Shown: piece after piece, positions 128 to 60,635 of the stretch | Layout of the letters: every line of letters begins with the position of its first letter | Numbering within the stretch: the first letter of the stretch is position 1 | Program-made: the position numbers and the translations under genes | Notes under the pieces: model-generated | The model's database searches: none | What the model was told of the DNA's origin: nothing | The model's input: only the letters and a program-made list of their open reading frames with translations | Assembly: GCA_902510055.1 (NCBI GenBank) | Contig: CABWZY010000001.1 | Coordinates: 212-64,211, forward strand | Source of the DNA: an uncultured Candidatus Actinomarina sp. | Lineage (GTDB): Bacteria; Actinomycetota; Acidimicrobiia; Actinomarinales; Actinomarinaceae | Direction of reading: 5' to 3' | Length of the DNA: 64,000 nt

Positions 128-2689
128 ATGAGTAAAAATATACTACCAAAGACTTCGTTCCCTAAAAGATACGAAATAAAACTAGATGTTGACTTAGAAA
201 ATTTTTCATATATTGGAAATCAGACTGTAGATATGGAAATCTTGGAAAATACGAAGTCAATTTTCCTAAACAGTCTAGGAATTAAAATAAGTCATGCTTC
301 GTTAATAGATAAAAACGATCAAGCAATTAACCTCTCTATTGAATATTTTGAAGATGTTGAAAGAATATCTCTTTCTTCCAAAAATGAAATTCTCAAAGGC
401 AACTATAGACTTTGTTTAGAGTTTAAATCAGAAATTACAAATGATCTAAAAGGATTCTATAGAAGTAAATTCTTAAATAAAGATGATGAAGAAAAGTGGA
501 TTGCGACTACTCAATTTGAACCAACTGCTGCAAGAAATGCTTTCCCATGCTGGGATGAACCAGAATACAAAGCAGTATTTTCAATAACTATTATTGCTGA
601 TAAAAAATATCTCAGAGTAAGTAACGAAAAGGTCCTCTCAGAAAAAGAGCTTGAGAACAATAAGATAGAAACGATATTTGTTGATTCAATGAAAATGTCA
701 ACCTATCTAGTTGCTTTTGTTATAGGGGAATTAGAAGCTACTGAAATTGGTAAGGCAGGAGATACTAAAGTTCGAATAATCCATCGCCCAGGCTTCTCTG
801 ATCAAACAAAATATGCTGGAACAGCGGGTATTAAGCTACTTAATTTCTTTGAAGATTATTATAAAATTCCATATCCAGGATCCAAACTTGATTTAATTGC
901 AATTCCAGACTTTGCTATGGGTGCAATGGAAAATGTAGGTGCAGTTACATTTAGAGAAAACTTACTTCTAATAGATGAAGGGAAGGCAACTAGGCCAGAA
1001 TTAGATAGGTCTGTAAGTGTAATAGCTCATGAACTTGCACATATGTGGTTTGGTGATTTAGTAACTATGAAATGGTGGGATGGAATATGGTTAAATGAAG
1101 CTTTTGCAAGCTTGATGGAAGTTATCGCATCATATAATAAGTATCCAGAATTTAAACAATGGAATGCAATGAACTTATCAAGAAGTGCGGGCTTTTCTGT
1201 TGATTCATTAGAAAATTCTAGACCAATAGAATTTGAGGTTGAAACACCAGAAGAAGCTGAAGAGATGTTTGACGTTCTAACCTATGAAAAAGGTTCTACT
1301 GTTTTGAGAATGTTTGAAATTTTTATTGGTGAAGATGTGTTTCAAAAGGGTGTACAAGAATATTTAAATAAATTTAAATATGGTAATACTAATTCTTCAG
1401 ATCTTTGGGACAGTTTAAGTAAGGCTAGTGGGCAATCGTTAAATGAAATGCTCCCGTATTGGATAAAAGAAAAAGGCTACCCTTGTGTTGGTGTTTCAAT
1501 TAATGACTCATCCTTACATTTAGAGCAGAATAGATTTTTACTAAAAGATATTAAAACTAAAAATTCAAATAAACCCATACCATTAAGTATTAGATTTCTA
1601 GATACTGACAAAAAAATAAACATAGTTTTTGAAGAATCTAATAAAGATATAGATATTAAAAATAATGGTAATGTACCACTCATAAATAGTGGTGGTTGGG
1701 GCTTCTATCATGTTTTTTACGATGAAGAATCATTTAATAAAGTCTTAAATAATTTTGAAAAATTAGATGACTTAGAAAAATACAGGCTTCTTGAAGATCG
1801 ATGGATGCAATTTAAAAAGATTGGTAACGAAATGGTTGCTAATGAGGTAGAAAATTTTTTAAAGTTCCTTCTTTATTATAAAAATGAAAAGGATGAAGAT
1901 ATATGGACATATATTGGATCAATAATTACAACCCTTTCAAATATTGATAGCGAAAAAAATGGAAAAGTATTTAAAGAATTTATTGATAAGCTAACACTCC
2001 CTTTAAGCAAGGAGCTTGGGGTTGAAGTTAATCCAGATGATGATCCAGAGATAAAAGAACTTAGAGGCCTAATAAATAAAATAAGGGCTAAGAACTTAGA
2101 GGATGAATCATTTATAAAGTATTTTAGTGAAATTTTTAACAGTGAAGATTTTGAATCAATTTTAGAAGGTAGTTTTTTTAATACTGTTGTCTATATTGCA
2201 GCTTTAGATGAATCAAATAATGTTGAAATCTTTTTAGATAAATTCATGAATGCACCGTCGCCACAGATACAGGGAAGATATAGAGCAATATTAGGAATCA
2301 TTAAAGATAGAAATGCACCTAGCGAAATAGTGAAATATATGCTTGAGGAAAAAATCCGCGGCGCTGATTGCCCTTATATATTAGCTTCAATGATAATGAA
2401 CAAATATATAGGTAAAGAGTCATGGTTAGTTATAAAAGAAAACTTTGATGAACTATTAAAAGTAATGCCAGCATGGACAGCTTCAAGAATTCTTGATGCA
2501 CTTTCTTCTATCTATGATGAACAATTGGGAAATGATATAAAAGATTTTATTACAAAAAACCCTCTGCCTTCTTCAGAGAAAATCGCATCGCAAAAATTAG
2601 AAAGATTAGAAGCTAATATAGAGTTTGTATTAAATATTGAAAATAAATTCAATGCAGAAGTCATTGAAAAAGTATTAAAGGAGAGCTAA
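128..2689 (+). CDS. pepN: Aminopeptidase N (M1 family)
   Basis: It has the GAMEN exopeptidase motif, the HELAHMWFGD zinc motif and the downstream WLNEAFA glutamate. The 853 aa length is typical. Confidence 0.9.
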   Translation: MSKNILPKTSFPKRYEIKLDVDLENFSYIGNQTVDMEILENTKSIFLNSLGIKISHASLIDKNDQAINLSIEYFEDVERISLSSKNEILKGNYRLCLEFKSEITNDLKGFYRSKFLNKDDEEKWIATTQFEPTAARNAFPCWDEPEYKAVFSITIIADKKYLRVSNEKVLSEKELENNKIETIFVDSMKMSTYLVAFVIGELEATEIGKAGDTKVRIIHRPGFSDQTKYAGTAGIKLLNFFEDYYKIPYPGSKLDLIAIPDFAMGAMENVGAVTFRENLLLIDEGKATRPELDRSVSVIAHELAHMWFGDLVTMKWWDGIWLNEAFASLMEVIASYNKYPEFKQWNAMNLSRSAGFSVDSLENSRPIEFEVETPEEAEEMFDVLTYEKGSTVLRMFEIFIGEDVFQKGVQEYLNKFKYGNTNSSDLWDSLSKASGQSLNEMLPYWIKEKGYPCVGVSINDSSLHLEQNRFLLKDIKTKNSNKPIPLSIRFLDTDKKINIVFEESNKDIDIKNNGNVPLINSGGWGFYHVFYDEESFNKVLNNFEKLDDLEKYRLLEDRWMQFKKIGNEMVANEVENFLKFLLYYKNEKDEDIWTYIGSIITTLSNIDSEKNGKVFKEFIDKLTLPLSKELGVEVNPDDDPEIKELRGLINKIRAKNLEDESFIKYFSEIFNSEDFESILEGSFFNTVVYIAALDESNNVEIFLDKFMNAPSPQIQGRYRAILGIIKDRNAPSEIVKYMLEEKIRGADCPYILASMIMNKYIGKESWLVIKENFDELLKVMPAWTASRILDALSSIYDEQLGNDIKDFITKNPLPSSEKIASQKLERLEANIEFVLNIENKFNAEVIEKVLKES

Positions 2690-2691
2690 GA

Positions 2692-3510
2692 ATGAAGCCA
2701 AGAATTGCTGTTTTTTTACAACCCCAACATGCAGAATATGATCAAATAAGAAACGCTGCATTAGAGGCAGAGGAAATAGGTGCAGATGTTATTTATAACT
2801 GGGATCATTTCTACCCTTTATATAAAGAAGATGGAACTCAGTGGGCTGAAGGAGAAAGAAGAGAAGGAAAACATTTTGAGTGTTGGACAATGTTAGCTAG
2901 TTGGGCTGAAGCAACTAGTACAGTAGACATAGGTCCTCTTGTTACATGTAACTCATACCGAAATCCTGAGTTATTAGCAGACATGGCAAGAACTGTTGAT
3001 CATATATCAAACGGAAGAGCAATACTAGGAATAGGTTCTGGCTGGTTTGAACAAGATTATGATGAGTATGGTTATGAATTTGGTTCTGCAATTTGGAGAC
3101 TCCAAGAACTTGAGAAATCATTAGAAAGAATTGTTGAGAGAATGAAGAAGCTAGACCCTCAACCAACAAGAAAAATCCCAATACTAATTGGTGGTGGTGG
3201 TGAAAAAGTGACACTAAGGATAACTGCTCAATATGCTGATATTTGGCATGGTTTTGCAATGAGGACTGAAGAAAGATCCGGAGTTGAAACTGTAGCCCAT
3301 AAAAATAATGTACTAAATAATTGGTGTAAAGAAATTGGAAGAGATCCTAAAGAAATTGAAAGATCAATCGGAATTGACATCAATAGAATTGATAAGGCTG
3401 ATGACTTACTTGAGGCTGGAGCAACTGAATTAACGTTAGCTGTTAATGGTCCTAGTTATGATTTGTCACCTGTAAAAGAATGGATTTCCTGGAGAGATTC
3501 TAAAGGTTAA
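2692..3510 (+). CDS. Luciferase-like (LLM class) F420-dependent oxidoreductase
   Basis: The 272 aa TIM-barrel-like sequence resembles actinobacterial LLM/F420 oxidoreductases (N-terminal PRIAVF..., GRAILGIGSGW). This is a family-level call only. Confidence 0.6.
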   Translation: MKPRIAVFLQPQHAEYDQIRNAALEAEEIGADVIYNWDHFYPLYKEDGTQWAEGERREGKHFECWTMLASWAEATSTVDIGPLVTCNSYRNPELLADMARTVDHISNGRAILGIGSGWFEQDYDEYGYEFGSAIWRLQELEKSLERIVERMKKLDPQPTRKIPILIGGGGEKVTLRITAQYADIWHGFAMRTEERSGVETVAHKNNVLNNWCKEIGRDPKEIERSIGIDINRIDKADDLLEAGATELTLAVNGPSYDLSPVKEWISWRDSKG

Positions 3511-3516
3511 AAATCA

Positions 3517-4440
3517 ATGAGCCTTTACCTTACAATTTTTGGTTTAATTTTAGGATTTATTCTTCTCGTTAAAGGTGCGGAAGAGATGGTTCGCACTGCT
3601 ATTCAAATTGCAATGAAATTTAACATGCCTAATTCAGTAATTGGTGCAACCTTTATAGGTTTTGGAACATCAGCCCCTGAACTATTTGCAAGCTCTGGTG
3701 CAGCATTAAATGGAAACCTATCATTAGGTATAGGAAATATTATTGGTTCCAATATCGCTAACTCATTAGTTGCAATTTCTGTTTTATACTTAGCTTTAAA
3801 TAAAGATTTTAATAAAAAATTAAAGCTTAATAACACTTCTTCAACATGGATGATTATCGTAACAATTATATTTGTAAGTGCATATTTGGTTCTTAAAGAG
3901 TTCCCACTTTACCTTGGAATTGGTTTATTAGGATTAGTAGTTTTTGTTACCTATAAACTTGTTACAGAAGAAGCTGTTGATCAAGAGGATTTATTAATAG
4001 AAAAAAAAGATTATGTTTGGTTGAGAGCTATTGCTTCACTCACAGCAACAATTTTTGGTAGTACATTAGTAGTCAATAATGCCATTACTTTGGCTGAATA
4101 CTTTAATTTATCCTCAATAATTATTGGCGTTACTGTCGTTGCTTTAGGAACAAGTCTCCCAGAAATTGCTGGAACAATAGCAGCTGCGAAAATGAAAAAC
4201 CCAGATATAGTTTTTGGAAATATATTTGGTTCAAACTTATTTAATATTGCATTGGTTGGAGGTGTTTCGGTTTCTATTGCTCCTGGCGTTATTGAAACCG
4301 ATGTAACAAATGAAATGACGATGATGTTTATTGTGTCATTGCTAGTAGTTTTACTATCTAGGTCTGTAGTTAAAAAAAGCTATTTAATTGGATTTATTAC
4401 ATTAATTTCTTATTCAATTTTTATATATACTTTATTTTAA
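3517..4440 (+). CDS. Ca2+/Na+ antiporter (CaCA family, YrbG-like)
   Basis: It has two alpha-repeat signatures (GTSAPELFAS and GTSLPEIAGT) in a polytopic membrane protein. Confidence 0.8.
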   Translation: MSLYLTIFGLILGFILLVKGAEEMVRTAIQIAMKFNMPNSVIGATFIGFGTSAPELFASSGAALNGNLSLGIGNIIGSNIANSLVAISVLYLALNKDFNKKLKLNNTSSTWMIIVTIIFVSAYLVLKEFPLYLGIGLLGLVVFVTYKLVTEEAVDQEDLLIEKKDYVWLRAIASLTATIFGSTLVVNNAITLAEYFNLSSIIIGVTVVALGTSLPEIAGTIAAAKMKNPDIVFGNIFGSNLFNIALVGGVSVSIAPGVIETDVTNEMTMMFIVSLLVVLLSRSVVKKSYLIGFITLISYSIFIYTLF

Positions 4441-33041: not shown

Positions 33042-35197
33042 TCTTTCTTTAAGTTGTCTAACAAAATTAAGGATACGTCGCGAACTCTAACGTTATCTCC
33101 TTCACCCAGTTCTTTAACGCCATCGTCCATCATAATGTAACAAAAAGGACAGGCTACAGCAACTTCGTCTGCTCCTGTCTCAATAGCTTCTTGAGATCTT
33201 TCTATATTAACTTTCTTACCCGTATTCTCTTCCATCCACATTCTTCCGCCACCAGCACCGCAACAAAAGCTTTTGGTTCCTTGGCGTTTCATTTCTCTAA
33301 TCTCTATGCCTCCGATAGATCCTACTATTTCTCTTGGTGCTGTGTAAATGTCATTATGCCTACCCAGATAGCAAGAATCATGATATGTAATTGAGTAAGG
33401 CTTTTCAGCGTTTCCAACTTCTATTTTCCCAGACTGCACAAGTTCCGTTAATAATTGGCTATGGTGAATTACCTCAAAATTTCCACCTAATTGAGGATAT
33501 TCATTAGCAATAGTATTGAAACAATGAGGACACTGAGTTATGACTTTTTTAACATTCAGATTGTTCATATTTTCAATATTTTGAATTGCAAGTTGTTGAA
33601 ATACAAACTCATTTCCTGTTCTTCTTGCTGAATCACCTGTACATATTTCCTTTGGACCTAAAACTGCATATGATACATTTGCTCTTTTAAGTAAGGTTGC
33701 TACTGCTTTAGTAACGGGAATATTTCTATCATCAAATGCTCCTGCACATCCAATCCAGTAAAGATACTCTACTTCTTCTTTGTTATTTTCTTCTAATAGG
33801 GCGACATCGAAATCTAAATCTTCTGACCATTTCATTCTGTCATTCTGTGAAGCACCCCAAGGATTTGATGAATTCTCCATTGCAACATAAGCCTTCCCTA
33901 ACTCAGTTGGGAAATCCGAAGCCATTAATGCGAGATGTCTTCTCATGTCTAATATTTTGTCCAATATTTCAATATTTACAGGACAAATTTCATCACAAGC
34001 TTTACATGAAGTACAAGCCCATAACTCTTCTGTCGTTACTCTTTCAAATACACTCGAAGCTTTTACTTTAAGATCAATCGGTGTAGTTACTGTAGAAGGA
34101 ACAGGTGGATCGCCAGTCTCTGACATTACTTGTCCTACTTTAAGAATTATTTCTCTTGGATCTAATGGCTTACCTGTTAAATTTGCAGGACAAACCGATG
34201 TACATCTACCGCAAGCTGTACAAGCATCTAAATCTACAAGTTGTTTCCAAGTGAAATTTTCAATAAGTTCAACTCCTACAGTGTCTATATCTTCTAGCTC
34301 CATAAGGTTGCCTATGTCTTTCATAGCTCCTTTTGGTCTTTCATTTGGACTCAGGTACATATTCACAGGTGAAGTCACAATATGGCGCAGCTTGGACTGA
34401 GGAAGAACAATTAAAAATACAAAGAATGAAGCTACATGCAGTATCCAAGAAACTCTATGAAATAGAACACCACTTTCTATAGGTAATAACTCTGCAATGA
34501 AATAACCTACAAAGCTCCATTTTTCATAATTAGGAAAGCCTTCCACTATGATTCTTCCAGCTTCAGTAGTTAGACCAGACAGACCCATAAATCCTAGAAG
34601 AAGGAGGGTTAAATAATCATCCATCTTAGTTTTAGTTTTTAGCCTATCTTCTGTACCAAAAATTCTTCTGTATAAAGCCCAAGCTATACCTCCTAAGTAG
34701 ACCAAGGAAGCGAGCTCTAAAGCAAATGAATAAACTAGATAAGTAGTACCCTGTAAGAATTTTAATGATGGTGGCATCAAATGATGTATTTCGAGAGTTA
34801 TTGTCCCAGCAAACAGTCCTAAAAAGCCAATATAAATCATTGAATGCATTAATCCAGCAGCTTTAAATCTAAGTAATGTCTTCATTAGAAGTCCATCAAA
34901 TAAATTTATAATTCTTTGACTTAGCTTTACTTTTCTCTTCTCTTCAGTCCCTCTTGACCAGTTCTTAGCTCTTAAAGAGAATAAATAACCGCAGATGAAA
35001 ACTGAAGAAGCACTAAGTAAATAGAACAAATATTGGAGATACTTTGGTATATTTTCAAATACTCTTCTACCTTCTACTATTTCTCCTTCTGGAAATATAT
35101 AGCTTGCTCCCCATAAGAATAATGTTCCAAGTGCTGCCCCTGCTGAAAATAACAAAACATAATCATTTACTTGTCTATCTTTTTTTTGGCTATTCAT
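33038..35197 (-). CDS. Membrane-anchored Fe-S oxidoreductase (NarI/DsrM-like TM domain, 2x[4Fe-4S] and two CCG domains; HdrD/GlpC-like)
   Basis: It has CTACGRCTSVCP and CTSCKACDEICP ferredoxin motifs and CCG-type clusters (CPHC, CCGAGGG). I place the start at ATG 35197 (MNSQKK...), which overlaps the proC end by 8 nt. The longer track ORF runs into proC. Confidence 0.8.
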   Translation of the reverse strand: MNSQKKDRQVNDYVLLFSAGAALGTLFLWGASYIFPEGEIVEGRRVFENIPKYLQYLFYLLSASSVFICGYLFSLRAKNWSRGTEEKRKVKLSQRIINLFDGLLMKTLLRFKAAGLMHSMIYIGFLGLFAGTITLEIHHLMPPSLKFLQGTTYLVYSFALELASLVYLGGIAWALYRRIFGTEDRLKTKTKMDDYLTLLLLGFMGLSGLTTEAGRIIVEGFPNYEKWSFVGYFIAELLPIESGVLFHRVSWILHVASFFVFLIVLPQSKLRHIVTSPVNMYLSPNERPKGAMKDIGNLMELEDIDTVGVELIENFTWKQLVDLDACTACGRCTSVCPANLTGKPLDPREIILKVGQVMSETGDPPVPSTVTTPIDLKVKASSVFERVTTEELWACTSCKACDEICPVNIEILDKILDMRRHLALMASDFPTELGKAYVAMENSSNPWGASQNDRMKWSEDLDFDVALLEENNKEEVEYLYWIGCAGAFDDRNIPVTKAVATLLKRANVSYAVLGPKEICTGDSARRTGNEFVFQQLAIQNIENMNNLNVKKVITQCPHCFNTIANEYPQLGGNFEVIHHSQLLTELVQSGKIEVGNAEKPYSITYHDSCYLGRHNDIYTAPREIVGSIGGIEIREMKRQGTKSFCCGAGGGRMWMEENTGKKVNIERSQEAIETGADEVAVACPFCYIMMDDGVKELGEGDNVRVRDVSLILLDNLKKD

Positions 35198-35981
35198 TGT
35201 TAATTTCTTTTGATATCTCCATTGATCTTTCTGTTGCAGAATTGATTGCGTTGAAAATAATCTTATCAAAAGAATCATGCGTAAGCGAATTGATACCTGC
35301 CTCTGTTGTACCTTTGGGTGATTTTATTTTCTCTACAGTATCACTAAACTCCTCTTCATTGACTAATGCTGGTAGAGATTTGATAAGTTCCTTTACAATT
35401 TTGTTTGATTCTGATTTAGAAAGTCCTAATTCTAAAGCAGCCTCCACAATCTTTGAAGAAAGTTCTAGATACCAAGCTGGGCCACTTCCATATATTGATG
35501 TGATTATATGAAATAATTCTTCGTCGTATTCAGATATAGATCCTAAACCATTGAGTACTTCAAGAAATGATAAATAATCTTTCTCATAATTTTTTGTATA
35601 TGGAATAAAACCATTGTTATCTTTTATAGATAAATTTGGCATAAGACGAATAATTTTATTATTAATAAATTTTGATATATACGATGTGTTCACACCAGCT
35701 AATACTGTACAAATTAATACATCTTCTGAAATCTTTTCTTTATTTGTCTTTATAAAAAGATTTAAATCCTTTGGTTTAATACAGAGAACAAGAACTCCAT
35801 TTTCAATAACATCAATCTCTGTTTTTGGGTCAAGCTCAAATTGTTTTTTAATAAAATCAATAATTTTTGTTTCTTTTTCATAAAGATGAAATGTTAAGTT
35901 TTTATCAAGATTAATTAAACCCTGCAAAAGTGCTGAACCAAGGTTTCCTAGACCTACTATGTGTATATCCAAATTATTCAT
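35190..35981 (-). CDS. proC: Pyrroline-5-carboxylate reductase
   Basis: It has the N-terminal Rossmann motif IHIVGLGNLGSAL and P5CR C-terminal dimerisation motifs (SPKGTTEAG). Confidence 0.85.
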   Translation of the reverse strand: MNNLDIHIVGLGNLGSALLQGLINLDKNLTFHLYEKETKIIDFIKKQFELDPKTEIDVIENGVLVLCIKPKDLNLFIKTNKEKISEDVLICTVLAGVNTSYISKFINNKIIRLMPNLSIKDNNGFIPYTKNYEKDYLSFLEVLNGLGSISEYDEELFHIITSIYGSGPAWYLELSSKIVEAALELGLSKSESNKIVKELIKSLPALVNEEEFSDTVEKIKSPKGTTEAGINSLTHDSFDKIIFNAINSATERSMEISKEINNE

Positions 35982-36047
35982 TATTCAATAATATCAGCAT
36001 TAAAAGTAATGAAAGAATAGCTTTTTTTAGTAAAAAATAAAAAAAGT

Positions 36048-36075
36048 TTGTATTAAAACAGAAATATAGTATATT
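36048..36075 (+). promoter_or_regulatory. Possible sigma-70-type promoter of the heat-shock operon
   Basis: TTGTAT (36048-36053), 16 nt, then TATATT (36070-36075), just upstream of the palindrome. The AT-rich background makes this weak. Confidence 0.3.
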
Positions 36076-36081
36076 TATATT

Positions 36082-36107
36082 AAATCTAAGTAGATTTACT
36101 TAGATTT
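36082..36107. promoter_or_regulatory. Perfect 11-bp inverted repeat, candidate HspR operator (HAIR-like position)
   Basis: AAATCTAAGTA-GATT-TACTTAGATTT. The inner CTAAGT/ACTTAG recalls the HAIR half-sites CTTGAGT/ACTCAAG, but the spacing differs. It lies 37 nt upstream of the first cistron of an operon that ends in hspR. Confidence 0.55.
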
Positions 36108-36143
36108 TATTACTAAATAAAGTTAGATAAGAAAGGAATTATT

Positions 36144-36335
36144 ATGAGTTCTACATTAACAGCTTCTTCAGTGAAGCCTGGTGTCAGAAGATCTAAGAGC
36201 TACACATCAGGTCGTATCTGTGATTTTTCCGGATGCGCGACTGTAATAAGCATTTACAACAAAAAGAAACTATGTTTTCTTCACTCTCCAGTCTCTTATC
36301 CAAGGGTTAGAGGGCATTTACCAAGAGAACAATAA
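36144..36335 (+). CDS. 63 aa C-x4-C-x12-C-x2-H mini-protein, first cistron of the dnaK operon (paralog of 58137-58331)
   Basis: A purine-rich RBS (AAAGGAA) precedes the ATG. About half of its positions are identical to the second copy, including all four putative metal ligands and the SIYNK and YPRVRG blocks. Confidence 0.6.
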   Translation: MSSTLTASSVKPGVRRSKSYTSGRICDFSGCATVISIYNKKKLCFLHSPVSYPRVRGHLPREQ

Positions 36336-36368: not shown

Positions 36369-38183
36369 ATGGGAAAAGCAGTAGGTATTGATTTAGGCAC
36401 TACGAATAGCGTAGTTGCTGTTTTAGAAGGCGGCGAGCCAACTGTAATAGCTAACGCAGAAGGTAATAGAACAACTCCTTCTATTGTTGCTTTTAAAGGC
36501 GAAGAAGTATTGGTCGGTGAATTAGCTAAAAGACAAGCAATTACAAATCCAGATAATACTGTAAGGTCAATAAAAAGAAAAATTGGCTCGAATTGGAAAG
36601 AAAAGTTTGAAAATAAAGAATATACACCTCAAGAAGTTTCTGCAAGGATTCTTCAAAAATTAAAAAGAGATGCTGAAAGCTATATAGGTGAAGATGTCAC
36701 AGATGCTGTAATAACAGTTCCAGCATATTTCAACGATGCGGAAAGACAAGCTACTAAAGAAGCTGGGCAAATCGCAGGATTAAATGTATTAAGAATTATT
36801 AATGAACCTACTGCGGCGGCTTTAGCCTATGGATTAGAAAATAATGAAGATCAAAAAATTTTAGTCTATGACTTAGGTGGAGGAACGTTTGATGTTTCTG
36901 TATTAGAGATTTCAGAAGGAGTTTTTGAAGTTAAGTCAACATCAGGTGATTCAAAACTAGGTGGAGATGACTGGGATGAAAGAGTAATGGACTGGTTAGT
37001 TGAAAAATTTAAGTCTTCAACAGGAATTGATATTTCAAAAGATAAAATGGCAATGCAGAGAATAAAAGAAGGTGCTGAAAAAGCAAAAATAGAGCTTTCT
37101 TCAACAACTGAAACTGAAATTAACTTGCCTTTCATTACAGCTAACGATTCAGGCCCGCAGCACTTGCTAGAAAAGTTATCAAGAAGTGAATTTGAAAAAA
37201 TTACATCAGATCTTGTAGATAGAACAAAAGACCCTGTAAATAAAGCTGTAAAAGACGCTGGATTATCTTTTTCAGATATTGAACACATAGTCTTAGTTGG
37301 TGGTTCAACTAGAATTCCTGCTGTACAAACACTTGTAAAATCTATAACTGGAAAAGATCCCTCTAAAGGTGTTAACCCCGATGAAGTAGTAGCTTCAGGT
37401 GCTGCTATTCAAGCAGGTGTACTAAAAGGTGATGTTAAAGATGTCTTGCTTCTTGATGTTACTCCCTTAACTCTTGGTGTTGAAACAAAGGGTGGAATTA
37501 TGACAAAAATGATTGAAAGAAACACAACAATACCAACAAAAAGGTCTGAAACATTTTCAACGGCTGACGACGGACAGACTCAAGTAGAAATTCATGTACT
37601 TCAAGGCGAAAGAGAAATGGCTTCTGGTAATAAGTCATTAGGTAAATTTAATTTAACTGATATCCCTTCAGCAAAAGCTGGAACACCCCAGATTGAAGTT
37701 ACTTTTGATATTGATGCTAACGGAATTGTTAATGTTAATGCAAAAGATCTTGGTACTGGTAAGGAACAAGCTATAACAATAACTGGTGGTACTGCTCTCG
37801 AAGAAGATGAAATAGAGAGAATGGTTAAGGATGCTGAGGAGCATGCAAATGAAGATGCTAAAAAGAAAGAGCTTGTTGAGACAAGAAACTTAGCTGAAAG
37901 CATGGTTACATCTACAGAAAAAATGCTTGAAGAGAATAAAGATAAAGCTACTGATGAGGAAATTAAAGCTATCAATGAAAGTAAAGATAACTTATCAAAA
38001 GTACTTGAAAATCAAGAAGCAAGTCTTGATGAAATGAAGAATTCAATTGAGGAGTTAACAAAAGCTAGTCAATCATTTGCAGAAAAACTTTATGCTGAAG
38101 CTCAACAAAGTAATGAAGTTTCTGAAAATGAAGAAACTAATGATGATGTTGTTGATGGTGAAGTCGTAGAAGAAGATGAGTAA
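36369..38183 (+). CDS. dnaK: Chaperone DnaK (Hsp70)
   Basis: It has [17 protein letters not shown] and the full Hsp70 architecture. Confidence 0.97.
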
Positions 38184-38667
38184 AAAAAAGGCATCATCTA
38201 AGAAAAAAGATGATGAAAAAAATGAAGATAATTCTACAGAAGAAGAATCGCCCTCTATCCCTTTAGAAGATTACGAAAAAATAAAAGATGACTACTTAAG
38301 ACTTGCTGCAGATTTTGACAATTTTAAAAAAAGAACCGAAAAAGATAAAGAAAATCAATTAGTAGGGTCGCTATCAATTATATTGACTGGACTTTTCCCT
38401 CTTATAGATAACTTTGAAATAGCAATGGGCCAAGAAGAAGTTCCTAAAGAACTTGAGGCATTATATAAATTAGTGCTAACTTTTCTTGAAAATTTAAATA
38501 TTACTGAAGTGCCAGGAGTAGGAGAAAAATTTGACCCCTCATACCATGAAGCAATAGAACACTCGGGTGAAGGTGACGACCAAATAGTTGAAGAGGTTTT
38601 ACGAAAAGGTTATAAATTAGAAGATAGATTGATAAGGCCAGCAATGGTTAAAGTTCAAAGTGAATAG
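38176..38667 (+). CDS. grpE: Nucleotide exchange factor GrpE
   Basis: It has the GrpE core ([10 protein letters not shown]..., HEAIEH..., [16 protein letters not shown]) and overlaps dnaK. Confidence 0.9.
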
Positions 38668-39739
38668 AGACTGGCTAGAAAAAGATTTTTATGCCATTCT
38701 TGGTGTTTCAAAAGATGCAAGTACTGATGACATTAAGAAAGCTTACAAAAAATTAGCAAGAGAAAATCATCCTGATCTAAACCCTGGAGATACAGAGGCA
38801 GAGAAAAAATTCAAAGAAATATCAGAAGCTAGTGCTATCTTGTCTGATGAAGGAAAACGTCAAGAGTATGATCAAGTTAGAACAATGGGTGCTTCCGGAT
38901 TCTCTGGATTTTCAGGTGGTCAAGGCTTCAATGTAGATATTGGAGATATTTTTGGTGATATATTCGGATTTGGAGGAGCTGGCAGAAGAAAGGGTCAAAC
39001 ATATCAAACAAATCTTACAATCTCATTTACTGATGCTGCATCAGGGATAGAAACTAATGTCCCTCTTAGAAAAGAAGTTGTTTGTGAAGACTGTAAAGGT
39101 AATGGATCAGAAAATGGTAACGCCTTTCATACATGTAATATTTGTAGCGGAAGTGGACAAACAGCATCTAACCAAGGTTTCTTTTCTTTTGCGCAACCTT
39201 GTTCAGCCTGTAAGGGTCAGGGGAATGTAATAGATAAGGAATGTAAAGCGTGTAGAGCACAAGGGTCTGTAATAAAAAATGAAACTATAAAAGTGAAGGT
39301 ACCTGCTGGTGTTGATAATGGAACTGTAATTAGATTAAGAGGCTATGGAGGTCCAGGAGATGCCGGTGCTCCAGATGGTGACTTATTAGTTCAAGTAGGA
39401 GTAGAGCCACATAAATTTTTTAAACGAAATGGTAGCGATTTAATATTAGAAGTTCCTTTGCTTTTCTCTGAAGCTGCGCTCGGAGCTACAATAAAAATTC
39501 CAACACTTAAAAAAACAGTTAGTCTAAAAATACCTCAAGGTACACCAAGTGGTAAATCCTTCAAAATAAAAGGAGAAGGTATCTCCCCTCAAGGTAGAAG
39601 GTCTGGAGACTTATATATAAGAGTAGCTATAAAGCCCCCTTCAAAACTATCAAGAACTGGGAAAAAGAAACTAGAAGAATTTAGAGATGAAGGATATGAA
39701 GGGACACCTGAAGAGTATCGAGGATACTTATATGAATGA
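38660..39739 (+). CDS. dnaJ: Co-chaperone DnaJ
   Basis: It has a J domain with HPD, a G/F region and four CxxCxGxG zinc motifs. It uses a GTG start. Confidence 0.95.
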   Translation: MNRDWLEKDFYAILGVSKDASTDDIKKAYKKLARENHPDLNPGDTEAEKKFKEISEASAILSDEGKRQEYDQVRTMGASGFSGFSGGQGFNVDIGDIFGDIFGFGGAGRRKGQTYQTNLTISFTDAASGIETNVPLRKEVVCEDCKGNGSENGNAFHTCNICSGSGQTASNQGFFSFAQPCSACKGQGNVIDKECKACRAQGSVIKNETIKVKVPAGVDNGTVIRLRGYGGPGDAGAPDGDLLVQVGVEPHKFFKRNGSDLILEVPLLFSEAALGATIKIPTLKKTVSLKIPQGTPSGKSFKIKGEGISPQGRRSGDLYIRVAIKPPSKLSRTGKKKLEEFRDEGYEGTPEEYRGYLYE

Positions 39740-40121
39740 TAAAAAAACCATTTCTTTATACTTCATTTCAGTAGCATCTACTTTATCTGGGATACACCCC
39801 CAAACAATCAGAACATATGAAGAAAAGGGCTTAATTAAACCTTATAGAACAAAAGGTGGAACCAGAAGATATTCTCAAGAAGATGTTGATAAATTAATAC
39901 AAATTGCAAATCTTTCACAAAGGGGGATTAAATTAGAGGGAATAAAAATTATTTATGAGATGAGAGACAAAATAGAAGAAATGCAAGAGAAAATAGATTT
40001 CCTACAAGAAGAAATTAGTAGCGAAAAGTCAGCTAGAGCTAAAAAGGAAAATGAAATTCATAAAAGTTACAAAAATGAAATTGTTAAAAAATCAAATAAG
40101 GATTTACGTAAAAAGCTTTAA
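39732..40121 (+). CDS. hspR: MerR-family heat-shock repressor HspR
   Basis: It has a MerR HTH (YFISVASTLSGIHPQTIRTYEEKGLIKPYRTKGGTRRY) at the end of the dnaK operon. ATG 39732 overlaps the dnaJ stop by 8 nt. Confidence 0.85.
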   Translation: MNDKKTISLYFISVASTLSGIHPQTIRTYEEKGLIKPYRTKGGTRRYSQEDVDKLIQIANLSQRGIKLEGIKIIYEMRDKIEEMQEKIDFLQEEISSEKSARAKKENEIHKSYKNEIVKKSNKDLRKKL

Positions 40122-49604: not shown

Positions 49605-49674
49605 AAATGAATTTTATCAGAATTATCTGCTTTATGCCTAGAAGAAGGACTATATATGTCGAAGTATATAAAGT

Positions 49675-49698
49675 AAAAGGGGCTTTTCAGCCCCTTTT
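49675..49698 (-). terminator. Intrinsic terminator/attenuator between the binding-protein and permease genes
   Basis: AAAAGGGGC-TTTTCA-GCCCCTTTT forms a GC-rich 9-bp stem followed by a U-rich tract on the minus-strand transcript. Confidence 0.7.
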
Positions 49699-49720
49699 AC
49701 AAAATTAGTAAGGTAATTAA

Positions 49721-50785
49721 TTACCTTGCTGGAGGTGCGTAAACCAATCCTCCGTTGTTCCAATAGTCGTTATAACTACCTTCTCTGTAGAGACCTAATG
49801 GATTTAGGTTTCTTGAAAAGATTTCGTCATAGTTTCCTATTTGCTTTACAACGTTGTAGTAAGCATCTGCACTTAGACCCATCTTTGTTTGAAGCTCTCC
49901 ATCGTTCTTACCGAACAATCTACCCATTTCTGGGGCAGCATCATAATCAAATGAATCAATGTTAGCTCTAGTTACACCATACTCATCAGCGATGATTGTA
50001 GCGTAAACAGTCCAGTTAACAATGTCAGCCCATTGGCTATCATTTGATCTATATGTTGGACCTAATGGCTCTTTAGAAATTGGTGATGCTGGGAAAATTG
50101 CCCAGTCATTAAGAGCGTCATTAACTGCTCTTCTACCAACTAATCCTGAACCGTCAGTTGTTACTATGTCGCACTCACCTGCGATGAACTTGTCAATAGC
50201 TTCTGAGAAAGCTTCAACTGTTACTAGTTCAATTGTTGCTCCTACAAGTCCAGCACCTTCTGTAATATTCTTTTCAGTTGTGGTACCAGCGTTTGTACAT
50301 ACTCTTAATCCATCAACGTCAGCAAGAGTTGAGCTATCTGACAATCCGTCAGACTTTCTACCCATCAATTGTTGACCATCATAGTAAGTGGTCGGACCAA
50401 AGTCATTACCCAATTCGGTATCACGGCTTTGAGTCCAAGTTGTATTTCTAATCAATACGTCTATTTCACCAGCGCTAAGTGCTGTAAATCTTTCAGCAGC
50501 AGTAAGTTGCTTAAATTCAACTTTACTGTAATCACCGAAAACAGCAGCAGCAACTGCATAGCAATAGTCAACGTCGAATCCTGAATAAGATCCGTCGTCA
50601 GCTACTTCTGTAAATCCAGTTGCACCGGTGCTAACACCACACTTAAGAAATCCTCTAGCTTGGACCTCTTCGAGTGTAGTCATAGCGACTTCTTCAACTA
50701 CTTCTTCAACAGCGTCATCTGTGCCTCCACAAGCGACAGCTATCATTGAAAGAACTAGCAAAGAAACGATTGCTTTTTTACTCAA
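49721..50785 (-). CDS. aapJ: General L-amino-acid ABC transporter substrate-binding lipoprotein (AapJ/BztA-like)
   Basis: It has a lipobox (IAVACGG) and an AapJ-like core (GFLKCGVS..., IDVLIRNTTWT). It has a TTG start after GGAGAAAACA. Confidence 0.85.
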   Translation of the reverse strand: MSKKAIVSLLVLSMIAVACGGTDDAVEEVVEEVAMTTLEEVQARGFLKCGVSTGATGFTEVADDGSYSGFDVDYCYAVAAAVFGDYSKVEFKQLTAAERFTALSAGEIDVLIRNTTWTQSRDTELGNDFGPTTYYDGQQLMGRKSDGLSDSSTLADVDGLRVCTNAGTTTEKNITEGAGLVGATIELVTVEAFSEAIDKFIAGECDIVTTDGSGLVGRRAVNDALNDWAIFPASPISKEPLGPTYRSNDSQWADIVNWTVYATIIADEYGVTRANIDSFDYDAAPEMGRLFGKNDGELQTKMGLSADAYYNVVKQIGNYDEIFSRNLNPLGLYREGSYNDYWNNGGLVYAPPAR

Positions 50786-57059: not shown

Positions 57060-57794
57060 TTAAAAAATATTTCTAGATATAACAACTAATCCTGAAATGA
57101 TTGAAAACCAAATAACTCCATTAGAAATTACTTTGTCTGAAACCTTCATGAATAATTTAGACGAGAGGCTTATTCCAAGAAATGTTGGAATAATCATATA
57201 TAAAAACAAAAAAAAGTGATCTTGATATATTCGACCATCTATTAGTAAAAGAGTTAATGTAATAAGTATCCCGAATGTAAAAACCGCATTCAAAGATGGT
57301 CTAAATTCTTTCCCTTTTGTATCTCTATATAATATTGCTATAGGAGGTCCTCCAACACCTGCAATCATTGCAAAAATGCCTGAAAACATTCCTGCATTAA
57401 ATGAATTCCTAAAATTCCTTTCTAAAGTCCAGCCAAAATAAGAAGCAAGACCAGCAAATAAGACTATCGCACCAACAGTTATTGATAAGATTCTTTGTTC
57501 TAAATAGATTAAACAAAGTAGTCCTAAAGGACCTCCAACAAGCCTTCCAATTAATAAATACTTCATTGGAGACCATATAACCTGTGATCGTTCTCTTCTA
57601 AATATTTTTATCGTTAAGGGAAAAGCTAATAAGCTAAGTAAAGCTGGGACAAGTACAGGATCTATTTGGACAAGAATTGGAGAAGATATTACAGCAAAAC
57701 CATAGCCTAAAAGTCCTTGTATGTATGATGCAATAAATAATAAGGATGCAATAAAGACTAGTTCAAATATTGTTAAGTCGAATGGAATGTTCAA
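57060..57794 (-). CDS. TauE/SafE-family anion permease (DUF81)
   Basis: It is a polytopic 244 aa protein with duplicated glycine-rich TM motifs. Its TTG start overlaps the stop of the upstream selenoprotein gene in a TTGA junction. Confidence 0.75.
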   Translation of the reverse strand: MNIPFDLTIFELVFIASLLFIASYIQGLLGYGFAVISSPILVQIDPVLVPALLSLLAFPLTIKIFRRERSQVIWSPMKYLLIGRLVGGPLGLLCLIYLEQRILSITVGAIVLFAGLASYFGWTLERNFRNSFNAGMFSGIFAMIAGVGGPPIAILYRDTKGKEFRPSLNAVFTFGILITLTLLLIDGRIYQDHFFLFLYMIIPTFLGISLSSKLFMKVSDKVISNGVIWFSIISGLVVISRNIF

Positions 57795-58027
57795 CTAAGC
57801 GCTTTTTCGATTAAACCCAGTATCTCTCCGTCTTCAGTGTGCCTATCTGTTTCTATTTTTGAATAGAGCAAATCACCATTTAAATAAAATTCAAATTTGC
57901 CACCTGAAGTAGGTATTAAGTCGATAGATTTCACTTCTTGACCATATTTTTCTAAAATGTCTTCAACCGTACTAACTGCACGGGGTGTGTAGTTTCAGAC
58001 TACACAGAATTCTAGTTTGATTTCCAT
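57791..58027 (-). CDS. SelW/Rdx-family selenoprotein (CxxU), 78 codons, TGA = Sec at 57995-57997
   Basis: It translates to MEIKLEFCVV-TGA-NYTPRAVSTVEDILEKYGQEVKSIDLIPTSGGKFEFYLNGDLLYSKIETDRHTEDGEILGLIEKALS. The CxxU follows beta-1, and SGG.FE....G.L.YSK is the Rdx/SelW pattern. It is absent from the ORF track because the TGA splits it. A TGATAGTAT extended -10-like element ends 6 nt before the ATG, so the mRNA may be leaderless. Confidence 0.8.
57986..58006 (-). promoter_or_regulatory. 8-bp perfect hairpin presenting the Sec UGA in its loop, with a longer imperfect hairpin downstream (SECIS candidate region 57960-58006)
   Basis: The mRNA UGUGUAGU-CUGAA-ACUACACA has the UGA inside the 5-nt loop. 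Downstream, AACUAC...GUA(CG)GUU and CCGU...ACGG can pair in alternative ways. I folded it by hand only. Confidence 0.35.
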
Positions 58028-58076: not shown

Positions 58077-58105
58077 TTGCATGCTACAAGTAAAGTTGTT
58101 AATCT
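58077..58105 (+). promoter_or_regulatory. Possible promoter of the mini-protein/copZA operon
   Basis: TTGCAT (58077-58082), 17 nt, then TAATCT (58100-58105). The palindrome would then cover the transcription start region. Confidence 0.35.
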
Positions 58106-58122
58106 TGTGAATATATTCACAA
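58105..58122. promoter_or_regulatory. 18-bp perfect palindrome containing an exact TGTGA-N6-TCACA core; candidate operator
   Basis: TTGTGAATATATTCACAA lies 14 nt upstream of ATG 58137, in the divergent region shared with the selW-like gene. Confidence 0.55.
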
Positions 58123-58136
58123 AGTAAAGGGAAGAA

Positions 58137-58331
58137 ATGACTGACGGACTAAAAGCTAGTCAAATAAAAGGTGGCATTAGGCCATCAAAAAGTTTTGAAC
58201 AGGGTCGTACTTGTAACGATGAGTCTTGCGAAACAAAATTGAGTATTTATAACAAGAGAAATCATTGTTTTAATCATGCTCCAGTTAAGTATCCAAGAGT
58301 TAGAGGAAGAATACTTCAAGAAACAGCTTAA
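58137..58331 (+). CDS. 64 aa C-x4-C-x12-C-x2-H mini-protein, first cistron of the copper operon (paralog of 36144-36335)
   Basis: The RBS AAGGGAAG precedes the ATG. It aligns without gaps to the dnaK-operon copy, with all Cys/His ligands and the SIYNK and YPRVRG blocks conserved. Confidence 0.6.
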   Translation: MTDGLKASQIKGGIRPSKSFEQGRTCNDESCETKLSIYNKRNHCFNHAPVKYPRVRGRILQETA

Positions 58332-58396: not shown

Positions 58397-58600
58397 ATGG
58401 AATTAAAATTTAAAGTACCTGAAATAAGTTGTGAACATTGTAAAAATACAATTGAAACAATTCTTAATAATGAAAATAATATAATTTCTGCTTTTGTAGA
58501 TATTGAAAAAAAAGAAGTATTAATAAATTCAGATACCGAAGTCTCAATCAGTGCAATAGGAACATTGCTTGACGATCATGGTTACACAGTTGTCGAATGA
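58397..58600 (+). CDS. copZ: Copper chaperone CopZ (HMA domain)
   Basis: It is 67 aa with the metal-binding loop SCEHCK in a ferredoxin-like fold pattern. Confidence 0.8.
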   Translation: MELKFKVPEISCEHCKNTIETILNNENNIISAFVDIEKKEVLINSDTEVSISAIGTLLDDHGYTVVE

Positions 58601-60635
58601 AAGCAAGCCTCTAACTCTCTCAATTGAGGGAATGACCTGTGCTGCCTGTGCATCAAGAATTGAGAGAGTCTTAGATAAAGAAACTTCAATAAAAAATGCG
58701 GTAGTTAATTTCCCATTGAAAAAAGCTATTGTAGAGTTTCATGAATCTATTGATACGAATAAAGTTATTGAAAAAATTAAATCAATTGGCTATTCAGCAG
58801 TTGTATTCGAAGAAAACATTGTTGACGAAAAGAAAATAACAAAATTTATTAAACCTGTTCTATCTTTAATACTAACAATACTTCTAAAACCACTTTTTAT
58901 TGAGAATGGTTTTACAATTCAAGCAATTAGTATCGCTATAGTTGTAATTTTTGTATTTGGCTATAAATTTCACATATCTGCAATAAAGAATTTAGTGAGA
59001 CTTAGCTTTAATATGGATACCTTGATTTCAATTGGTAGTCTTTCTTCTTTCATTTTTGCCATATTATCAACAAAGCAACCCTTGATGTTTCTTGAAACAG
59101 GTGCGTATATTGTTTCATTTATATTAATTGGAAAAACTATTGAAGAAGTATCAATTAAATCTTCGGTAGAAATATCTGAAGCCCTTTTAGAGCTAATCCC
59201 TAAAGATGTAAGAGTTTATAACGGGGAATACGTAATGAAAAATATAGATGAAATATCAAAAGATGAAGAAATAGTTGTTCTTCCAGGAGAAGTTATACCT
59301 TTAGACGGTCATATACAAACAGGAGCATCGACTATTGACGAAAGTATTATTACAGGCGAATCAGTTCCTGTTGAAAAAAATAAAGACAGCTTAGTTATAG
59401 CGGGGACAATAAATCTTACTGGCGAAATAAAAATTAAAGTATCAAAAATAAGTGGTGAAACGACTTTTAATTTAATTGAAGATATGATATTTAAAGCTCA
59501 AACAACAAAGCCCTCCGTTCAAAAAAATATAGATAAAGTGACTCAAATTTTTGTACCTACTGTACTTATTATTAGTTTGTTCACTTTTTTCATGAGGTTA
59601 ATTTATTTTGAGCAAGAAACTTTTGTAGCATTAAAGATAGCTATATCTATTCTTGTTATTGCATGCCCTTGTGCTTTAGGTCTAGCAATTCCAATAGTCC
59701 TTTTTAGATCAGTTTCTATATCCAATAAAAAAGGTTTCATATTTAAAAACTTTGATTACTTACAAAAGCTTACAAAAGTGACAACCATTATATTTGATAA
59801 AACTGGAACAATAACAACTGGCGTTTTTAAGATTAAATCAATTATCGCTAAAAACGGAGGAAGCACTGATTTAGTATTGCAATATATAGCAAGCCTAGAA
59901 CAAAAGTCCAACCACCCAATTGCAAAAAGTATATTGCTTGAAGCAGAAAATAAAAATATACCCCTATTTGAAGTAGAGAATTTTGTCGAAAAAGAAGGAG
60001 TTGGTGTTGAGGGAAAGGTAAATGAGAAAAAAGTATCTATAAAAAAAGCTTCCGTAAATGAAGGCACTTTAACTATCTTGGATGTCAAGATAAATGAAAA
60101 TATGTTTTCTATAGAACTAGAAGAAGAAGTCAGAATTAATTCTCAATTTATAAATACTCTTTCAGATAGTTACGAAGTTTCAATCTTATCAGGAGATAGT
60201 AGTAAAAAAGTTCAGGATTTTGGAAAATCTCTAGGAGTTTCGGAATCTATTGGAAGTCAGATGCCTGAAGATAAAGTTAAATATGTAAAAGAAAAACAAA
60301 TAAACAATACGGTTGCTTTTGTGGGAGATGGGATTAATGATTCGCCTGCTTTAAAGCAAGCTGATGTAGGGATAGCAAGTTCACATAGTACACAAATAGC
60401 ACAGAGTGCTGGAGACATAATTATTCATAAAGGCGATATATCTAAAATTATTGACATAATTGATCTAGCAAAGAAATCTCAAAAAAGAATAAATCAGAAT
60501 CTATTCTTAGCTTTTATTTATAACACAGCAATGATACCAATTGCTATAACGGGAAATATATCGCCAAATATGGCTGCGTTAGCAATGGCTGCTTCTAGTA
60601 TTTCAGTTGTGTTTAACTCGTCAAGAAATCTGTAA
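58569..60635 (+). CDS. copA: Copper-translocating P1B-type ATPase
   Basis: It has the HMA motif GMTCAACASRIE, the TM CPC motif, DKTGT and GDGINDSPAL. The start is uncertain (TTG 58569, ATG 58578 or TTG 58590), and all options overlap copZ. Confidence 0.9.
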   Translation: MTIMVTQLSNESKPLTLSIEGMTCAACASRIERVLDKETSIKNAVVNFPLKKAIVEFHESIDTNKVIEKIKSIGYSAVVFEENIVDEKKITKFIKPVLSLILTILLKPLFIENGFTIQAISIAIVVIFVFGYKFHISAIKNLVRLSFNMDTLISIGSLSSFIFAILSTKQPLMFLETGAYIVSFILIGKTIEEVSIKSSVEISEALLELIPKDVRVYNGEYVMKNIDEISKDEEIVVLPGEVIPLDGHIQTGASTIDESIITGESVPVEKNKDSLVIAGTINLTGEIKIKVSKISGETTFNLIEDMIFKAQTTKPSVQKNIDKVTQIFVPTVLIISLFTFFMRLIYFEQETFVALKIAISILVIACPCALGLAIPIVLFRSVSISNKKGFIFKNFDYLQKLTKVTTIIFDKTGTITTGVFKIKSIIAKNGGSTDLVLQYIASLEQKSNHPIAKSILLEAENKNIPLFEVENFVEKEGVGVEGKVNEKKVSIKKASVNEGTLTILDVKINENMFSIELEEEVRINSQFINTLSDSYEVSILSGDSSKKVQDFGKSLGVSESIGSQMPEDKVKYVKEKQINNTVAFVGDGINDSPALKQADVGIASSHSTQIAQSAGDIIIHKGDISKIIDIIDLAKKSQKRINQNLFLAFIYNTAMIPIAITGNISPNMAALAMAASSISVVFNSSRNL

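Follow-up and report, generated by a model that had tools for sequence, protein, structure and literature searches.

The DNA analysed here (the window: 64,000 nucleotides, 33% GC, from an uncultured Candidatus Actinomarina genome) encodes, at 36144–36335 on the plus strand, a 63-amino-acid protein that we call mini1. Its open reading frame (ORF) begins with ATG, follows the ribosome-binding site AAAGGA (36132–36137, plus strand) at a distance of 6 nucleotides and stands first in a unit that continues with dnaK, grpE, dnaJ and hspR. The mini1 stop (36335) and the dnaK start (36369) are separated by a gap of 33 nucleotides, in which a scan found no terminator-like or promoter-like site. Upstream of mini1 lies a perfect inverted repeat with arms of 11 base pairs (bp), AAATCTAAGTA-GATT-TACTTAGATTT (36082–36107, no strand assigned). 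A first-pass annotation, made by a model from the letters of the DNA, had reported the ORF, its ribosome-binding site, the gap and the repeat, and all four lie exactly where it put them.

The genes behind mini1 are all on the plus strand. The first, dnaK (Hsp70; 36369–38183), has an ortholog with the Pfam HSP70 domain in locus L001; grpE (38176–38667) overlaps the end of dnaK by 8 nucleotides and corresponds to a Pfam GrpE gene in L001; and dnaJ (38660–39739) overlaps the end of grpE, with a J-domain and CxxCxGxG repeats visible in its translation. The last gene, hspR (39687–40121), encodes a MerR-family heat-shock repressor that matches Pfam MerR_1 and the NCBIfam HeatShock_HspR equivalog model (108.5 bits, against a cutoff of 105), as expected of an HspR-controlled dnaK operon. 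Among the matches listed, the order mini-dnaK-grpE-dnaJ-hspR recurs in 6 other genomes and in 45 metagenome contigs. An hspR gene also lies within the dnaK-grpE-dnaJ operon in L024, L040 and L090, and marine metagenomes contain contigs nearly identical to the window (L187 and L214).

Seven orthologs of mini1 provided 21 pairs for a coding test. Synonymous divergence (pS) ranges from 0.10 to 0.78 (0.5–0.78 except for one near-identical pair), so that synonymous sites are near saturation, and the ratio of nonsynonymous to synonymous divergence (pN/pS) is 0.00–0.25 over all pairs and 0.07–0.25 without the near-identical one. We conclude that 36144–36335 is a real protein-coding gene; a non-coding ORF or a leader peptide is ruled out by the low pN/pS. 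The first-pass annotation had let its claim stand or fall on whether substitutions between homologs look coding, and with no ratio above 0.25 they do.

The window holds a second copy. The protein mini2 (64 amino acids; 58137–58331, plus strand), recognized as an ORF and by its alignment to mini1, is the product of the first gene of a copZ-copA unit and shares 32 of 62 ungapped positions with mini1 (E = 2e-24), which agrees with the 32 identities that had been counted by hand at first pass. The motif C-x4-C-x12-C-x2-H proposed at the same time is present in both window copies. Close orthologs of mini2 are listed by NCBI under Candidatus Actinomarina.

These two proteins belong to a large family. 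An exhaustive HMMER profile search over 1.84 billion cluster representatives matched 1157 representatives of 50% identity clusters at E ≤ 1e-3, nearly all of them 60–120 amino acids long, and 125 of these reach E ≤ 1e-10; counted at 90% identity and E ≤ 1e-6, the family comprises at least 843 clusters. Mini1 is thus a conserved gene with homologs well beyond its own genome, as had been suspected. We also scanned contigs of one genome per GTDB species with a hand-made degenerate DNA pattern based on the invariant residues. This pattern matched at least 120 places, and all 120 genome matches listed encode true family members. Judged by record title, they come mostly from Acidimicrobiia, Actinomarinales and unclassified Actinomycetota or Actinomycetes metagenome-assembled genomes; we take the few other taxon labels to be mis-binned. 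The listed matches include no named cultured genus, and named members found elsewhere are likewise from metagenome-assembled genomes. A tblastn search found no match in 50,697 GenBank phages or 72,556 PLSDB plasmids.

Profile searches against Pfam-A, NCBIfam, PHROGs and PDB sequences returned no significant match, whether the query was a window protein or one of 39 members, consistent with the initial failure to place mini1 in a named family, and every source that names a family member calls it a ‘hypothetical protein’. We found no literature containing the motif string and, among the results listed, nothing relevant on Actinomarina with HspR or dnaK. As judged by sequence comparison, the family is undescribed and unrelated to any curated family. 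A genome can carry several paralogs, each orthologous group keeping its own neighbourhood. Longer members have either a second, uncharacterized CxxC...H...C module or mis-called starts, and there are no other domain fusions. The two-module subfamily (105–120 amino acids; P0125, P0137, P0155, P0158, P0162, P0167, P0168, P0183 and P0189) follows the P-R-x-R-G tail with C-x2-C ... (V/I)H(R) ... (A/S)xLCE, an arrangement that corresponds to no known family.

The putative zinc ligands of mini1 are C26, C31, C44 and H47. As expected of a generic Cys3His knuckle, none of the four varies in two alignments of diverse sequences (39 and 28 of them), and the model is a confident one. Ten positions are invariant in the alignments of diverse members (R24, C26, C31, S36, Y38, N39, C44, H47, R56 and G57), giving the family pattern R-x-C-x4-C-x4-S-x-Y-N-x4-C-x2-H-x8-R-G; R15 is nearly invariant, as are P53 and R54 in the first alignment. 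The protein is strongly basic (isoelectric point (pI) 10.2 and net charge +9, with family medians of 10.0 and +8). AlphaFold2, run on the 39-sequence alignment, gave a mean predicted local distance difference test (pLDDT) score of 81.6, with values of about 90 over residues 21–40. The only regular element of the model is a short β-hairpin around the first two cysteines, and there are no helices. The modelled shape is that of a zinc knuckle with extended arms, in which the four ligands would hold one Zn(II) and make up the whole fold.

Several known zinc-binding or cysteine-rich families resemble the mini-proteins in part. The likeness to FCS/TRASH-type fingers, of which the first-pass annotation had been loosely reminded, found no support: such fingers are spaced C-x2-C ... 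F-C-S or C-x2-C-x19-22-C-x3-C, unlike the C-x4-C-x12-C-x2-H of the mini-proteins, and no such Pfam match appeared at E ≤ 1 for the window proteins or at E ≤ 0.1 for the 39 members. The ligand pattern R-x-C-x4-C ... C-x2-H is shared with the EsV-1-7, WRKY19-type and CxC6 repeats (PF19114, PF24906 and PF18721), and sub-threshold Pfam matches occur to EsV_1_7_cys (3 of the 39 members), Zf_WRKY19 (2 of 39) and CxC6 (9 of 39), with E between 0.008 and 0.09. However, these matches reach 13–16 bits against gathering thresholds of 25–27.5 and most cover the C-x4-C part alone, the repeats are eukaryotic or from giant viruses, and the loop of the mini-proteins is shorter. The likeness therefore looks like a resemblance of pattern alone; the function of EsV-1-7 itself is unknown (PMC7457493). 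An HNH or ββα-Me finger was also considered and rejected, as the protein is too short and has neither a predicted helix nor a catalytic histidine.

WhiB-like proteins, too, are small cysteine-metal proteins of actinobacteria and their phages, with multiple paralogs, basic C-terminal tails and stress-linked expression. Their marks are a G[V/I]WGG turn and a [4Fe-4S] cluster held by four cysteines (C-xn-C-x2-C-x5-C), whereas the mini-proteins have none of these features; their ligand pattern is different and they gave no Pfam Whib match.

We surveyed genomic context by orienting each locus on its mini gene, clustering the neighbouring ORFs and annotating representatives; the counts that follow are among the 120 genome matches listed. 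The largest group, of 42 loci, lies behind a gene for an extracytoplasmic function (ECF) sigma factor of the SigH_actino type (246.8 bits), and this link spans at least four sequence groups. Between the sigma and mini genes, an ORF with the H-x3-C-x2-C motif of ZAS anti-sigma factors is present in 38 of 40 assessable loci, separated from the mini gene by a median of 39 nucleotides (4 nucleotides in L129). In L053, the match of this ORF to the RsrA model (‘mycothiol system anti-sigma-R’) reaches 77.6 bits, above the cutoff of 62.5. Downstream are genes for a Zincin_2/DUF2342 metalloprotease, tilS, hpt and ftsH, with linkage to the tilS-hpt-ftsH cluster in 33–39 of the listed loci. The SigH-type mini copies are thus third cistrons, not leaders. 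In two of these loci, the mini and Zincin_2 genes are separated by an 86-amino-acid ORF without a Pfam match (L128, 6268–6528; L129, 6267–6527), which may be a further unannotated member of the sigH-type operon. Because the sigma linkage extends across several sequence groups, which suggests an ancestral position, the sigH-rsrA operon is probably the ancestral home of the family.

A second group of 35 loci, which includes mini2 and at least 13 loci from outside Actinomarina, has the order peptidase M3, mini, an optional copZ, copA and PAC2; the mini gene adjoins copA in 24 of these and peptidase M3 in 26. In the window, mini2 is followed on the plus strand by genes for a copZ-like heavy-metal-associated (HMA) protein (58397–58600; Pfam HMA, E = 3.7e-9) and a copA-like P-type ATPase (58569–60635), the orthologs of which have the Pfam domains HMA, E1-E2_ATPase and Hydrolase. 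The unit is preceded by a promoter-like sequence, TTGCAT-17-TAATCT, with a palindrome (58077–58122 together, plus strand). The layout is promoter-like hexamers, then the perfect 18-bp palindrome TTGTGAATATATTCACAA (58105–58122), which overlaps the predicted +1 of the mini2-copZ-copA unit, then a ribosome-binding site and mini2. The palindrome is kept at 6 other Actinomarina cop loci and is absent upstream of the high-GC cop-type relatives, where we found no conserved palindrome. The TGAA-N4-TTCA core of TTGTGAATATATTCACAA recalls ArsR/SmtB-type operators. The Actinomarina unit contains no other regulator gene.

Other cop-type loci differ in detail. L039 and L100 have a terminator-like hairpin between the mini2 ortholog and copZ (in L039, AAGCCCCTAT-GAAA-ATAGGGGCTT followed by Ts), so the mini gene there may form a separate or attenuated transcription unit; the corresponding region of the window has no such hairpin. 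In L122, from high-GC Acidimicrobiia, a putative MerR/CueR-like regulator (MKIGELAGRTGVSTKAIRYYENMGVL...), recognized by eye from its N-terminal sequence, lies between the mini gene and copZ-copA at about 2600–3030 of the oriented locus, and some cop-type loci of this kind thus appear to have a conventional copper regulator besides the mini-protein. Divergent from the mini2-copZ-copA promoter, a minus-strand ORF of the window (57791–58027) belongs to the SelW/SelT/SelH family (NCBIfam, E = 3e-9 for the C-terminal 47 amino acids). It extends upstream past an in-frame TGA (MEIKLEFCVV*NYTPRAV...), which would create a C-x-x-U redox motif, and a perfect 8-bp hairpin (57986–58006) surrounds this TGA. 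The ORF probably encodes a 78-amino-acid selenoprotein with an element resembling a selenocysteine insertion sequence (SECIS).

The third group (17 loci) lies downstream of an enoyl-CoA hydratase gene, and the remaining family members form smaller groups. Only seven loci make up the dnaK group; all are of the Actinomarina type, and dnaK is visible on the retrieved DNA in six of them, which are 6 of the 120 scan loci, L001 being additional to these. The proposal that mini1 is the first cistron of the dnaK operon therefore stands for Actinomarina-type genomes, in which the synteny recurs, and fails as a general actinobacterial trait. This position is a lineage-specific recruitment in Actinomarina-type genomes rather than a feature of the family. 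At the beginning of the window, an ORF considered as a ClpB gene turned out to encode aminopeptidase N.

The control region of the dnaK unit (35982–36143) is bounded upstream by a divergent gene on the minus strand (35190–35981). It contains a σ70-type promoter-like region (36047–36081, plus strand) with a −35-like TTTGTA (36047–36052) and two TATATT −10-like hexamers (36070–36075 and 36076–36081); these calls are based on the sequence and a scan, and the start of transcription is a predicted +1. In the orthologous regions, TTTGCA or TTGCAT and TATATT occupy equivalent positions, and the register of the promoter hexamers is kept. The inverted repeat follows directly after the TATATT hexamers, overlaps the predicted +1 and is the only strong palindrome of the control region. 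Its conserved core is ATCTAAGT-N6-ACTTAGAT (36084–36105), with arms of 8 bp.

Within the window alone the repeat is unremarkable, and it is conservation that gives it significance. Perfect inverted repeats with arms of at least 11 bp and loops of at most 8 nucleotides are expected about 0.8 times by chance in 64 kb at 33% GC; two loci were observed, the dnaK repeat and one at 49673. The latter (49673–49700) is the perfect inverted repeat AGTAAAAGGGGCTTTTCAGCCCCTTTTAC, a G+C-rich hairpin downstream of a minus-strand gene (49721–50785) that looks like an ordinary intrinsic terminator. The dnaK repeat was compared with six other Actinomarina-type genomes that had been retrieved through the protein, not the DNA. 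The arms ATCTAAGT and ACTTAGAT are kept in all six, save for one uncompensated base in L024, and the 6-nucleotide spacer between them varies freely. A metagenome scan with the 16 specified bases of the repeat matched at least 120 places; in 45 of the 120 listed, the repeat lies about 105–128 nucleotides before a mini-dnaK pair. The matches away from dnaK comprise three phage contigs, and 22 others that we examined are in unrelated contexts or organisms or inside ORFs. That the arms are kept base for base, with no compensatory pairs, while the spacer is free argues for a protein–DNA site rather than an RNA hairpin, and the repeat is accordingly best described as a predicted conserved operator at the promoter.

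The three marine phage contigs with the repeat encode a terminase large subunit (PHROG 38, E = 5e-65) and a family member of 68 amino acids, which shares 50% identity with mini1 across 46 residues. In one of them, L218, the mini gene is at 2882–3088 (plus strand) and the repeat ATCTAAGT-N6-ACTTAGAT at 3730–3751; the phage copy of the repeat is exact, about 645 nucleotides downstream of the phage mini gene and, as in the host, directly after TATATT. Further phage contigs carry a mini gene (L169, L249 and L252–L331), and IMG/VR holds at least 95 contigs with the phage mini-protein, always beside the terminase gene. The repeat is confined to one phage subclade. Phage relatives with a nearly identical mini core lack it, which indicates that it is not an obligatory target of the mini-protein, and we found no conserved palindrome upstream of the phage mini copies. 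By our estimate, a 16-base match would land at random in so small a phage group with a probability of about 1e-3 or less. The most economical interpretation is that a single phage lineage of Actinomarina took over a copy of a host operator, in which case the repeat and the mini gene may together mark a virus–host link and a hijacking of the host heat-shock circuit.

We propose, with a probability of roughly 0.4, that the mini-protein acts in gene expression, either on nucleic acid or on the sigma factor and RNA polymerase machinery. The link to the sigma/anti-sigma operon, the strong positive charge and the near-total conservation of the core favour such a role, and operon-specific orthologous groups together with the fixed position in phages are more in keeping with a regulator than with a chaperone of general scope. 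Contacts with nucleic acid or with sigma/RNA polymerase would be made by the P-R-x-R-G tail and by R15, K18, R24, R54 and R56, which are conserved basic residues, and the conserved arginine, asparagine and tyrosine residues would, with the tail, contact one specific macromolecular partner. Lability would reside in the zinc–thiolate centre, from which thiol oxidation or Cu(I) would drive out the zinc; the protein would then unfold and its output would change.

This lability is proposed by analogy with the neighbouring RsrA, which has the same Cys3-His zinc–thiolate chemistry. In RsrA and RshA that chemistry is a thiol switch, and the ZAS gene adjoins the mini gene in the 38 loci described above. 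The mini-protein is nonetheless not itself a ZAS protein. It lacks H-x3-C-x2-C, its ligand order is reversed, it has no profile match to zf-HC2/RsrA and its model is free of helices, whereas ZAS proteins are helical; the true ZAS gene is its neighbour. In a streamlined genome, the copies in the dnaK and cop units would have been drawn into these other stress regulons at a later stage.

In the dnaK unit, the palindrome would be an HspR operator of a diverged type, and mini1 would be made with Hsp70 when HspR lets go. HspR appears to be the likeliest binder of the repeat, since hspR ends the operon, the control region offers no other strong palindrome, the repeat overlaps the predicted +1 and its inner half-sites (AAGT/ACTT) resemble those of the HspR-associated inverted repeat (HAIR; GAGT/ACTC). 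The unit thus shares with HspR–HAIR systems an hspR gene that closes dnaK-grpE-dnaJ and a single AGT/ACT inverted repeat over the promoter and +1, but differs in the extra cistron before dnaK in Actinomarina and in the repeat itself, TCTAAGT-N6-ACTTAGA. Of the HspR control proposed at first pass, the hspR gene in the operon and the conserved repeat at the promoter hold up; binding is predicted, and the consensus is not matched.

A number of points weigh against this proposal. Its evidence is drawn from context and composition, and the family has no homology to any characterized protein. Beside sigH-rsrA, the conserved order may in part be due not to function but to a stable cluster (...Zincin_2-tilS-hpt-ftsH) passed on by descent, and the neighbourhoods are rich in proteostasis genes (DnaK, FtsH, Zincin_2, M3 peptidase and PAC2), which fits a chaperone-type role equally well. 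Zinc is predicted from the ligand pattern alone. The model has no recognizable DNA-binding or RNA-polymerase-binding fold; Foldseek returned nothing from PDB or BFVD at E ≤ 0.001, the BFVD matches being just short local ones to uncharacterized Caudovirales proteins. The repeat also departs from the HAIR consensus CTTGAGT-N7-ACTCAAG (PMC6102357), with 4 of 7 matches per half-site and a spacer of 6 rather than 7 nucleotides, a discrepancy of spacing already pointed out in the first-pass annotation. A second copy of the repeat is absent from the window at up to two mismatches, and none of the 22 examined metagenome matches away from dnaK is upstream of a recognizable heat-shock gene that could be a second HspR-type target; Actinomarina-like contigs likewise yielded no second target with this repeat.

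The main rival, which we consider possible but unlikely, is a redox-activated holdase or co-chaperone resembling Ruc/Rv0991c or Hsp33. Its reduced zinc form would be inactive, oxidation or copper would free the zinc, and the unfolded basic peptide would hold clients and pass them to DnaK–DnaJ–GrpE. The regulatory logic has a precedent in Ruc of Mycobacterium tuberculosis, a zinc–cysteine protein that is induced by SigH, repressed by HrcA and binds and works with DnaK (PMC7448276). Like Ruc and Hsp33, which are small cytoplasmic cysteine–zinc proteins expressed with or alongside Hsp70 or Hsp60 genes under SigH and a heat-shock repressor, the mini family belongs to such surroundings: its members lie in sigH-rsrA operons as well as the HspR-linked dnaK operon, near the genes for FtsH, Zincin_2, M3 peptidase and PAC2, and the copper link would fit thiol-directed proteotoxic stress. 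However, Ruc has about 110 amino acids, a Cys4 CxxC...CxxC ribbon and a long disordered C terminus, whereas the mini-proteins have 60–70 amino acids, the C-x4-C-x12-C-x2-H ligand set with just three cysteines and no tail of that kind, and thus no long disordered or hydrophobic region for binding clients. They have no sequence relation to Ruc/FmdB or Hsp33: no Zn-ribbon_8/FmdB match was obtained, and the Pfam, NCBIfam and PDB searches gave no similarity. A core conserved at nearly every position, with its arginine, asparagine and tyrosine residues, suggests one specific partner, the paralogs fall into separate orthologous groups, each bound to particular operons, and the phage copies are fixed beside a terminase gene.

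It is decidedly doubtful that the mini-proteins are themselves minimal, single-knuckle repressors of about 60 amino acids, with mini1 acting on ATCTAAGT-N6-ACTTAGAT and mini2 on TTGTGAATATATTCACAA to autoregulate their operons. The Zn(Cys3His) site would then be the sensor, oxidants or Cu(I) would strip the zinc and release the DNA, and marine phages with copies of their own, one subclade of which has the host operator, would be tapping host stress circuitry. CopY, for which mini2 alone invites comparison, works through a zinc–cysteine site that is displaceable by CopZ-delivered Cu(I), and mini2 likewise leads a copZ-copA operon; mini2 lacks the winged-helix domain and the CxCx4CxC motif of CopY, however, and its palindrome is not the TACAnnTGTA cop box. 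In favour of such repressors, each of the two Actinomarina paralogs leads its unit and comes straight after a strongly conserved palindrome that differs between them and overlaps the +1, the cop unit has no other regulator gene, the family is very basic and one phage subclade combines the mini gene with an exact dnaK-type repeat that chance would rarely provide. Against this, the dnaK unit already encodes HspR and has a single palindrome, with AGT/ACT inner half-sites like those of HAIR (PMC6102357). The repeat is missing from phage relatives whose mini core is almost the same, and the high-GC cop-type relatives lack a conserved upstream palindrome. The apparent MerR-type regulator between the mini gene and copZ in L122 and the third-cistron position of the SigH-type copies also speak against it.

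We give little credence to a constitutive structural zinc knuckle that senses nothing and whose partner has a housekeeping role (the ribosome, an RNA or the tilS/tRNA neighbourhood, for example), in which case the operon positions would reflect expression convenience or inherited gene order. The protein is small, basic, extended and zinc-knuckled, much like the ribosomal proteins L32, L33 and L36, and it is linked to the widely conserved tilS-hpt-ftsH cluster in many of the loci surveyed. A housekeeping role sits poorly, however, with several diverged paralogs per genome that are each tied to a different stress operon, with the restricted taxonomic range, with phages that carry their own copies and with Actinomarina members placed directly behind repressor-type operators.

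Finally, it is very improbable that the inverted repeat is an RNA element, a 5′-terminal hairpin acting in stability or as a thermometer of the dnaK-operon mRNA, for although it is placed at the predicted +1 or immediately downstream and its 11-bp stem is part of a structure with a minimum free energy of −13.4 kcal/mol, the arms are conserved base for base without compensatory pairs and with one uncompensated change in L024, the hairpin leaves the ribosome-binding site free and the z-score is just −1.55.

Although the family itself is new, RsrA, Ruc and Hsp33 are precedents for what we take it to be, a small zinc–thiolate protein wired into the SigH and heat-shock regulons. The first-pass suggestion of a new component of the heat-shock regulon must therefore be narrowed: Ruc/Rv0991c anticipates the concept (PMC7448276), although the family is unrelated to Ruc in sequence. 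If the zinc site is a switch, the mini-proteins would be a fourth kind of zinc–thiolate stress sensor after RsrA, Hsp33 and Ruc, and among the smallest. The family deserves a Pfam or NCBIfam model, which would give a common name to thousands of small ORFs now called ‘hypothetical’.

Actinomarina and other Acidimicrobiia are abundant bacteria with streamlined genomes, most of which have not been brought into culture, and the regulation of their stress responses is poorly understood. Members of this family are found in or beside three classic stress circuits: the SigH/RsrA thiol-oxidative switch, the CopZ/CopA exporter and the HspR/DnaK operon. We know of no isolated Actinomarina phage, and the phage-encoded copies, together with the host-type operator of one subclade, may provide a link between Actinomarina and its viruses.

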